Below are positions 26,588 to 27,801 of a stretch of 64,000 bases of DNA, piece after piece. Position 1 is the stretch's first letter; each line of letters opens with the position of its first letter. The notes under the pieces were generated by a model that saw only the letters and a program-made list of their open reading frames with translations, searched no databases and was not told where the DNA came from. Made by a program: the position numbers and the translations under genes. Origin of the DNA: Escherichia phage SF; sequence record MH359124. One strand, written 5' to 3'.

Positions 26588-27127
26588 ATGAGAACATTTT
26601 TAACTGGACCTTATCTATCCCTGATGAATGCTTTTACACACCATTCTGATGCTAGAGTAGAAGAAATTTGTAAGAATGGTTATATCCCGCCATTTGAAGA
26701 CGTACTCAAGCAGTACTGTACACTTCGTTTAGACGGCGGCAGACAATCAGGTAAATCAACTGCAGTAACTAATTTTGCGGCTAATTGGCTGCACGACGGT
26801 GGAACAGTTATTGTTCTTTCTAATACTTCAGCTTATGCTAAAATTTCTGCTGGCAACATTAAAAAAGAATTTTCTCGTTATTCTAGCGATGATATTCGAT
26901 TCCGTTTATTTACTGATTCTGTCCGTAGTTTTATTGGCAATGAAGGTTCTAAATTCCGTGGATTAACGCTTTCTCGTATTCTGTATATAATTGACGAGCC
27001 TATTAAAGCTCCTGATATGGATAAGATTTACAATGTCCATATTAAATCAGTACAGCACTGCTGCAAAAGCAAATATTGCATCAGCGGTACTGCTCGTCCT
27101 CAATTTTTTGTGATTGGACTGCAATGA
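26588..27127 (+). CDS. small P-loop NTPase
   Basis: Walker A GGRQSGKST and Walker B-like LYIIDEP; 179 aa. Confidence 0.6.
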   Translation: MRTFLTGPYLSLMNAFTHHSDARVEEICKNGYIPPFEDVLKQYCTLRLDGGRQSGKSTAVTNFAANWLHDGGTVIVLSNTSAYAKISAGNIKKEFSRYSSDDIRFRLFTDSVRSFIGNEGSKFRGLTLSRILYIIDEPIKAPDMDKIYNVHIKSVQHCCKSKYCISGTARPQFFVIGLQ

Positions 27128-27432
27128 TGACCACTATTGAAGTTTTTGAGTATTGTTATAACAGCCCAGTATGCAATAAAAGGGCTCTTGTAGAAAATTA
27201 CGAGATTTACCATTTTAAACCTAAACGATACCGTTTGACTAAAGGTCCGTTCGCAGGGCAGCAGGTTCTTTGTACTGCTCCTAATGCACGGTTGATGACT
27301 AGTATTCCGCATTTCAAAATGGAATTTATTGATGGGCCATTTAAGGGATTAATCACTCAAAGTTTAATGGCGTTTAATTCCGACCCATTTTTGATTAAAG
27401 AAAAATCTTGGATAAATTTATTTTCTAATTGA
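27124..27432 (+). CDS. hypothetical protein
   Basis: ATG overlapping upstream stop; MMTTIEVFEYCYNSPVCNKR. Confidence 0.5.
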   Translation: MMTTIEVFEYCYNSPVCNKRALVENYEIYHFKPKRYRLTKGPFAGQQVLCTAPNARLMTSIPHFKMEFIDGPFKGLITQSLMAFNSDPFLIKEKSWINLFSN

Positions 27433-27438
27433 GGTTAT

Positions 27439-27801
27439 ATGAAAGCATATCAAATTCTTGAAGGTGCACATAAAGGCACTATTTATTTTGAAGACGGTAC
27501 TCAAGCCCGGATTATCGTCTCTAAGACTTTTAAAGAAGACGCTATTGTAGACCCGGAAATTTTCTACGGTTTGAATGCCCGTGAAATTGAAATTGAACAT
27601 CAACCTAAAGTTAAAATTGAAGGTGGTCAACACCTGAACGTTAACGTTCTGCGTCGTGAAACTTTGGAAGATGCAGTTAAGCATCCAGAAAAATATCCGC
27701 AGCTGACCATCCGTGTATCCGGTTATGCAGTTCGCTTTAACTCTCTGACTCCGGAACAGCAGCGCGACGTTATCGCTCGTACCTTTACTGAGAGTCTATA
27801 A
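27439..27801 (+). CDS. grcA: autonomous glycyl radical cofactor (GrcA/YfiD-like; T4 Y06I-type)
   Basis: C-terminal RVSGYAVRF glycyl radical motif; C-terminal 60 aa appear identical to E. coli GrcA as recalled; E. coli-like codons in 3' half. Confidence 0.85.

Follow-up and report, generated by a model that had tools for sequence, protein, structure and literature searches.

A host-matched tract in vs.6, a glycyl-radical gene of T4-like phages

The vs.6 gene of phage SF and its product

In a stretch of 64,000 nucleotides from Escherichia phage SF (MH359124), the whole of which we call the window, we examined an open reading frame of 120 codons (27439-27801, ATG start, TAA stop; plus strand, as are the parts of vs.6 given below) which corresponds to the gene vs.6 of phage RB69 and codes for a homologue of the autonomous glycyl radical cofactor GrcA/YfiD, the Y06I protein of phage T4. 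The gene is a mosaic: codons 1-60 are of a phage-specific type, and the 57 codons that follow, which specify the glycyl-radical domain, have the host as their source, namely the chromosomal grcA gene of Escherichia coli. Based on the position and the edges of this 171-nucleotide tract, we propose that it was very probably acquired by homologous replacement.

By its sequence surroundings, vs.6 belongs to a T4-type phage of the RB69-like group (Mosigvirus): a region of 1.3 kb about the gene is 97-99% identical to S143_2, RB69 and their relatives, and vs.6 itself shows 98% nucleotide identity to RB69 vs.6. A small stand-alone protein of about 120-130 residues, made up mainly of a C-terminal glycyl-radical domain, is characteristic of GrcA/YfiD, and the vs.6 product has this form. 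Its residues 60-101 are recognized by the Pfam family Gly_radical (PF01228) with 67.3 bits against a cutoff of 22.2 (E=2e-18), residues 57-120 align with residues 696-759 of the pyruvate formate-lyase (PFL) PflB, with the RVSGYAVRF motif present (E=3e-26), and the best relative of solved structure is E. coli GrcA itself (PDB 6OWR, E=2e-42). The best NCBIfam match is TIGR04365 (spare_glycyl; E=5.8e-47, model positions 23-126); at 159.1 bits the phage protein stays below the curated equivalog cutoff of 170 bits, E. coli GrcA scoring 233.9, because the N-terminal half of the phage protein is divergent. Identity to the T4 counterpart is 94% over the full length and 100% within the glycyl-radical domain.

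According to PMC8683613, which relates the work of Wagner et al. 2001, both T4 Y06I and E. coli YfiD are reported to be activated by the PFL activase (PFL-AE) and to rescue oxygen-cleaved PFL; the same source gives G734 of PflB as the radical and cleavage site. We take vs.6 to be the phage copy of this "spare-part" GrcA, which would receive its radical from the host activase PflA and replace the oxygen-cleaved C-terminal domain of PFL. The expected radical carrier, equivalent to PflB G734 by the codon table and the PflB alignment, is Gly95 of the RVSGY sequence, encoded by GGT at 27721-27723. This biochemical role, that of a spare part for oxygen-damaged PFL, was already known and is unchanged by the mosaic structure described here.

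A nearly host-identical tract within a phage-type gene

The 5' part of vs.6 (27439-27618, residues 1-60) is AT-rich and shows 89% nucleotide identity to T4, 75% to the Klebsiella phage Kp122 and 45.6% to E. coli grcA. The 60 residues that it encodes are phage-specific, seven residues shorter than the corresponding part of bacterial GrcA and barely alignable with it. At 27618/27619 there is a sharp break. The 60 nucleotides before it (27559-27618) differ from E. coli grcA at 28 positions (53% identity); in the tract that begins behind it (27619-27789, residues 61-117, corresponding approximately to PflB 700-756) a codon-by-codon comparison finds 169 of 171 nucleotides identical (98.8%). The C-terminal 60 residues as a whole (E61-L120) match E. 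coli GrcA (WP_000627804; L001:847-1230) at 60 of 60 positions, and the five differences among the 183 nucleotides from 27619 to 27801 (97.3% identity) are all synonymous. The last three codons and the stop (27790-27801, GAG AGT CTA TAA) are again of phage type, as in the phages Margaery and EBPL, and form the right edge of the tract in the alignments; among related phages these final codons vary (GAA/GAG, AGT/AGC and CTA/TTG/CTG).

Two synonymous differences from E. coli lie within the tract. The first, T for C at 27664 (TTG against CTG, Leu76), occurs only in this phage among the 13 compared, and the second, A for G at 27687 (CCA against CCG, Pro83), is common to the Mosigvirus phages TH58 and WFL6982. 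A BLAST search of 5,426 complete E. coli genomes recovered the tract in all of them at 95-99% identity, the best value for any genome being 97.3%; as no genome exceeds this figure, none carries either difference, and both are phage-side changes. In T4 the tract shows no difference from E. coli grcA over its 171 nucleotides, the exact match extending to 176 nucleotides and the identity being 98.9% over 183, and the homologues L093 and L095 are likewise without differences in the tract.

Separate trees of the two segments disagree. In the tree of the 5' part all phages are monophyletic with 100% bootstrap support. In that of the tract, the T4/RB69-type sequences group with Escherichia (98%) and those of Jiaodavirus, a genus of Klebsiella phages, with Klebsiella (84%), and phage monophyly receives 0%. 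These results bear out an earlier account of the gene drawn from the letters alone, the sequence-only reading, which had described a grcA homologue ending in RVSGYAVRF, a C-terminal half of 60 residues identical to E. coli GrcA, an AT-rich and phage-like 5' half and a host-derived 3' half; of the comparisons it had proposed, that with host grcA gave, codon by codon, 5 differences in 183 nucleotides against 28 in 60 just upstream, and that with T4 showed a T4 gene that carries the same host-identical tract.

It is synonymous-site identity, not composition, that argues for a host origin. The identical 60 residues are encoded in several further lineages of phages, and two of these, Margaery and EBPL, have 25 and 28 synonymous differences from E. 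coli in the same 171 nucleotides. Against an expectation of about 25 differences, two or fewer have a Poisson probability of about 5e-9. Among the grcA genes of an 80-species panel, the nearest from outside Escherichia, that of Citrobacter amalonaticus, differs at 13 of the 171 positions and that of a second Escherichia species at two. About 85 phage homologues fall into two classes by their identity to E. coli, Tequatrovirus and Mosigvirus at 96.7-98.9% and all others at 86% or less. The sequence-only reading had named identity to host grcA no higher than that of other T4-like phages as an outcome that would speak against it; the identity found is far above that of most other T4-like genera (75-86%), yet it is equalled in T4 (98.9% over 183 nucleotides) and in about 620 records of Tequatrovirus/Mosigvirus. 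The same reading had leaned on a shift in guanine-plus-cytosine (GC) content and codon usage from about 27618. The shift itself is real, from 35.6% GC in the 5' 180 nucleotides (25% at third codon positions, GC3) to 48.5% in the tract (GC3 40%), against a window mean of 37.2%, with the break at 27618/27619. As proof of host origin we reject it, since the equivalent segment of Margaery, which is not host-like at the DNA level, has the same 48.5% GC.

Distribution in phages and a second host genus

A search of GenBank phages with E. coli grcA gives 751 matching records, of which 623 (Tequatrovirus/Mosigvirus) reach 95% identity or more; among the matches listed every alignment starts at grcA nucleotide 199-200, which corresponds to window position 27617/8. 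The tract is common to T4 and about 620 relatives, and is neither private to phage SF nor especially recent in it. Of the claim that the gene had recently recombined with the host, the recombination stands and the recency in this phage does not, given the same tract and left edge throughout these relatives and the two substitutions of its own.

In the Jiaodavirus phages the 5' half is likewise of phage type and ends at the same left edge, beyond which lies a tract with the Klebsiella-type residues LLDAVEH; two residues differ between the E. coli-type and the Klebsiella-type tract. Against the 80 grcA loci from GTDB this tract reached only 90-92% identity. With Klebsiella grcA DNA, which was obtained by protein look-up, identity rises to 95-98% over about 165 nucleotides, compared with 87-88% to E. 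coli. The match is reciprocal: with Klebsiella grcA as the query, 108 records of Klebsiella phages match at 95-99% and those of E. coli phages at 84-87%, and E. coli grcA finds Klebsiella phages at 85-89%. For individual phages, the Kp122 tract is 97.6% identical to the Klebsiella allele L173 and 88.5% to E. coli, and the T4 tract shows 100% identity with E. coli and 86-87% with the Klebsiella alleles L172-L176. The right edge is placed differently from that of the E. coli phages, some 18 nucleotides ahead of the stop. There have thus been at least two independent host-matched events, one in E. coli phages and one in Klebsiella phages. Furthermore, a TCG/CCG (Ser/Pro) and a TAC/TAT alternative are polymorphic both in the Klebsiella alleles and in the phages, where they cut across the 5' haplotypes; this pattern points to more than one Klebsiella donor allele.

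A possible third host-matched case is suggested by a phage from an oral metagenome (L113), in which a patch of about 75 nucleotides within the gene is near-identical to Haemophilus grcA and its sister phages differ at 6-13 sites; as both genomes are AT-rich, the match is no more than suggestive. We rejected the reading that this patch runs on into the host 3' flank, where seven nucleotides past the stop are identical to Haemophilus, because the sister phages share most of them. Also set aside was IMGVR_UViG_2706794630_000006 (L120), a contig listed as viral whose gene at 1291-1797 is 91% identical to Yersinia grcA: it is no phage mosaic, being a full-length bacterial-type grcA (MITGIQITK...), and the contig probably either comes from beside a prophage or is bacterial and wrongly classified.

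One event or repeated conversion

We then asked how the tract varies among the E. coli phages, using 12 vs.6 genes, six RB69-type and six T4-type, with the recombinant phage Pu-Krd-SF7 excluded. Fixed differences between the two types number 12 (seven of them synonymous) in the 5' 180 nucleotides and zero in the 171-nucleotide tract, for which the expectation is about eight synonymous ones (P=3e-4). Those closest to the tract stand at gene positions 170 and 360, that is, 11 nucleotides upstream and 9 nucleotides downstream of it, and vs.5, just 3' of vs.6, has 13-18 per 60 nucleotides. Informative sites and singletons are similarly skewed, at 23 and 5 in the 5' part against 4 and 19 in the tract (P=4e-6). 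The T4-type consensus of the tract is the E. coli sequence, and the RB69-type consensus is one site off. The tract is much younger than its flanks, and the homogeneous zone coincides with the zone of host homology, as would be predicted if the tract were converted repeatedly from a host "master copy". From this site pattern we consider it probable, though well short of certain, that conversion has been recurrent within the E. coli phages. The single recombination of the sequence-only reading is in this respect probably too simple, as the population data favor repeated conversion and the Klebsiella phages carry an independent tract.

The principal alternative is a single host-to-phage event in a shared ancestor of the vs.6 genes of Tequatrovirus and Mosigvirus or in a single lineage, followed by vertical descent, phage-phage spread or both, with no further input from the host. 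Such a history would account for the invariance of the left edge at grcA nucleotide 199-200 among the matches listed. T4-like phages are known to recombine readily during co-infection, and exchange between phages inside vs.6 itself is demonstrated by Pu-Krd-SF7. Nevertheless, we regard it as the less likely history. Vertical descent should have left the eight or so synonymous fixed differences that are missing from the tract, and for spread among phages each recipient would have to have undergone one crossover no more than 11 nucleotides to the left of the tract and another no more than 9 to its right, given flanks that are strongly differentiated as far as the tract edges. A T4-type consensus equal to E. 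coli and an RB69-type consensus one site off are, in turn, as expected with a host master copy. The Klebsiella-phage tract would be a separate event regardless.

Several points weigh against our reading of acquisition from the host, once or repeatedly, and we gather them here. The vs.6 of Pu-Krd-SF7 (PQ759887; L181:201-563) is a recombinant of the two types, RB69-type at gene positions of about 57-129 and T4-type at 39 and from 136 on, so that exchange between phage genera does occur within the gene; when it is included, giving 13 genes, fixed differences in the 5' part, 13 in a first set of genes, fall to 4. The sample of the population tests, 12-13 genes, is small. An identical left edge in the listed E. 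coli-phage records would also be expected from one ancestral event. E. coli grcA is near-invariant in the tract, so there are no donor-allele signatures by which to count events in E. coli phages. For the Klebsiella side, four alleles were sampled, two of them from metagenome contigs without an organism label. Finally, T4 degrades host DNA early in infection, so such events should be rare.

Direction of transfer and remaining alternatives

The distances of the E. coli gene indicate a direction from host to phage. The E. coli tract is 98.9% identical to that of a second Escherichia species and 93% to Citrobacter, and its 5' half 98.5% and 88.6%, respectively; because the tract thus stands at ordinary distances from enteric grcA genes, in step with its own bacterial-type 5' half, the phage is the recipient. 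The same direction is favored because none of the 5,426 E. coli genomes lacks the tract and nothing else in the window matches them: in a megablast of the whole 64 kb against these genomes there was no match except the tract, the flanking phage sequence being absent from E. coli. The reverse, in which E. coli grcA received its 3' half from a T4-like phage, could appeal to the fact that sequence identity alone carries no direction and to the two-way exchange reported for cyanophage psbA (PMC1484495). We consider it extremely improbable in view of the universal presence of the tract in E. coli, distances that agree with vertical descent as in its 5' half, the absence of flanking phage sequence from E. 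coli, and the same pattern in the Klebsiella system, where the phage copies its own host. As to the donor within the host, pflB and tdcE were set aside, since the T4 tract is 100% identical to grcA itself.

Equally hard to credit is the capture of the whole gene from the host on one occasion, with the 5' half then diverging rapidly under relaxed constraint and AT mutation pressure and the 3' half remaining unchanged. The N-terminal halves are weakly alignable (ARIIVSK with ARCIVAK, EDAIV with EDEVV), so the gene is ultimately homologous to grcA over its whole length. However, synonymous divergence should then be equal in the two halves, which instead stand at 46% and 98.8%; the phage-type N-terminus occurs in many T4-like genera, even in jumbo phages, with 3' halves that are not E. 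coli-like, and so long predates the tract; and among the listed rows of the 751 records none has an E. coli-like 5' half, all starting at nucleotide 199-200.

Convergence with no recombination, through extreme purifying selection on the glycyl-radical domain joined to host-like codon selection, has in its favor a 60-residue domain near-invariant over all phage and bacterial homologues, a codon-biased grcA and a GC content that is alike even in phage tracts that are not host-like, but it is effectively refuted by the synonymous-site controls, and we give it next to no weight: of the roughly 43 synonymous sites, 25-28 differ in phages that encode the same protein segment, enteric genera are about 14% apart in the tract (median identity 86%), the non-preferred codons AAG, CAT, GTA and GCA match as well, phage tracts reciprocally match their own host genus, and the identities are bimodal rather than graded.

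Mechanism and significance

Taking these observations together, we propose that codons 1-60 of vs.6 represent an old phage-specific lineage common to many T4-like genera and that codons 61-117 (27619-27789) were overwritten by the matching segment of the E. coli chromosomal grcA, the likely process being homologous recombination (gene conversion) during infection. The same replacement has taken place separately in the Klebsiella phages, and in the E. coli phages the tract has probably been reset repeatedly to the host sequence. The tract lies wholly within the sole region in which the phage and host genes can be aligned, its left edge being the end of alignability and its right edge the last codons before the stop; because it is confined in this way, homologous replacement appears preferable to illegitimate capture. 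T4-type phages possess a very active recombination machinery, able to copy homologous sequences available inside the infected cell.

As the encoded residues are near-invariant and the replacement is essentially synonymous, we regard the tract as a trace, for the most part neutral, that DNA passing from host to lytic phage has left behind, rather than as a functional change, although host-matched codons or residues may confer some advantage. A bolder form of the proposal, which we hold tentatively and stop just short of favoring, is that strictly lytic T4-like phages take a fresh copy of the vs.6 glycyl-radical segment again and again from the chromosome of their host of the moment. The tract would then act as a host "barcode" that updates itself, with an E. 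coli type in T4 and RB69, a Klebsiella type in Jiaodavirus and perhaps a Haemophilus type in the oral phage. If this were true, it would provide a natural and measurable assay of gene flow from host to virulent phage in T4, and a marker of the recent host genus.

The usual view of T4 and related phages is that they have no DNA in common with the host and destroy host DNA early in infection. The vs.6 tract indicates that homologous replacement from the host chromosome reaches fixation in lytic phages and has done so repeatedly, in E. coli and Klebsiella phages. The replacement is near-synonymous and therefore offers a clean, nearly neutral tracer of host-to-phage gene flow, and the rate and genetic requirements of host-phage recombination become directly testable in the best-studied phage system. 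The tract may also serve as a host-genus marker for uncultured T4-like phages. It further counsels caution, in that host-like codon usage in phage metabolic genes is not necessarily adaptation.

Neighboring genes and other grcA homologues

The gene order around vs.6 is vs.8-vs.7-vs.6-vs.5-vs.4-ORF117c-regB-vs.1-vs, the names being those of the RB69 annotation. A Shine-Dalgarno-like GAGG read from the sequence (27431-27434) precedes the vs.6 ATG by four nucleotides and overlaps the TGA stop of vs.7 (27430-27432). At the other end the vs.6 stop and the vs.5 start overlap as TAATG, the last A of TAA being the A of the vs.5 ATG (27801). In the Mosigvirus TH58 (an UNVERIFIED GenBank record; L180:583-585) the vs.6 stop is TAG rather than TAA, which makes the overlapping vs.5 start GTG rather than ATG. 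A scan for promoters and terminators around vs.6 gave counts no higher than those in shuffled sequence, and no transfer RNA (tRNA) genes were found between 20 and 32 kb of the window.

For the product of vs.8 (26588-27127) there were weak, sub-threshold matches to PF13173, an AAA domain, and to PF03237, which represents the N-terminal domain of the T4-type large terminase, and a homologue is annotated as a P-loop NTP hydrolase in one related record; the matches suggest a candidate P-loop nucleoside triphosphatase. Upstream of vs.8, the segment 25938-26450 allows no alignment between RB69-type and T4-type loci. At this place RB69 has ORF123c/124c and an internal head protein gene, and T4 has denV and its neighbors; it is a replacement of gene content adjoining the vs cluster.

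Homologues of vs.6 occur in other settings as well. In the Salmonella jumbo phage 7t3 (MK773491; L011:1-1850) the grcA homologue lies directly between nrdD, for the large subunit of the anaerobic ribonucleotide reductase, and the gene for its activase, nrdG, which hints that in some phages the spare-part protein may have its link with this reductase, the other glycyl-radical enzyme, rather than with PFL. In the T5-like Salmonella phage Kenya-K36 (L008:176-1388) and the Aeromonas phage 31 (L010:204-1945) it is found inside a tRNA gene cluster, unlike the vs.8-vs.1 block of T4 and RB69. Two homologues are disrupted: that of the Klebsiella phage CPRSB (Slopekvirus, L004:1501-1866) is frameshifted, being annotated only to nucleotide 1701 and having stops in the full translation, and that of an IMG/VR Jiaodavirus contig (L118, 1501-1862) lacks one base; each is a pseudogene or else reflects a sequencing error. 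On the bacterial side, a full-length grcA, normally a chromosomal gene, is present on unnamed4 of Klebsiella sp. WOUb02 (NZ_CP170105; L032), a 276-kb replicon labelled as a plasmid.

Comparison with known systems

No published description of a host-matched vs.6 mosaic was found in the searchable literature; the T4 genome review and other key papers were beyond reach, and an earlier mention is possible. For this gene, Nolan 2006 and Petrov 2010 offer a Pfam match at most and nothing on a mosaic at the DNA level. Among described systems, the spare-part cofactors T4 Y06I and E. coli GrcA stand close to vs.6. T4 Y06I has the same vs.8-vs.7-vs.6-vs.5 neighborhood and a 94% identical protein. E. coli GrcA shares the same C-terminal 60 residues with their RVSGY Gly_radical domain, and differs in that the N-terminal 60 residues of vs.6 are phage-specific.

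As for process, T4 genetics offers marker rescue and plasmid-phage homologous recombination, in which short homologous cytosine-containing DNA is copied into the phage genome, and Mosig and colleagues are said to have set out in 2001 a model of recombination-dependent replication for horizontal transfer. Marker rescue resembles the present case in that it is the likely machinery behind the vs.6 tract. It differs in being a laboratory procedure with engineered donors, whereas the vs.6 tract would have come from the host's own natural chromosome, and in wild phage populations it has become fixed.

The closest described parallel to the vs.6 mosaic is cyanophage psbA. For psbA and psbD of cyanophages, intragenic host-phage recombination with patchy GC content and conflicting segment trees has been described (Zeidner et al. 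2005; Sullivan et al. 2006, PMC1484495). Both systems concern a host-like metabolic gene of T4-like myoviruses that exchanges segments with the host copy, and the features by which such recombination is recognized in psbA are found in vs.6 too: a segment host-identical beyond constraint, conflicting trees, an identifiable donor and direction, and recurrence across phage-host pairs. The cyanophage signals are, however, more diffuse and are reported in both directions. In vs.6 there is one discrete block with edges within a few bases and up to 100% host identity, in two host genera and from host to phage only; and its carriers, unlike those of the psbA mosaics, include the classic enteric phages T4 and RB69.

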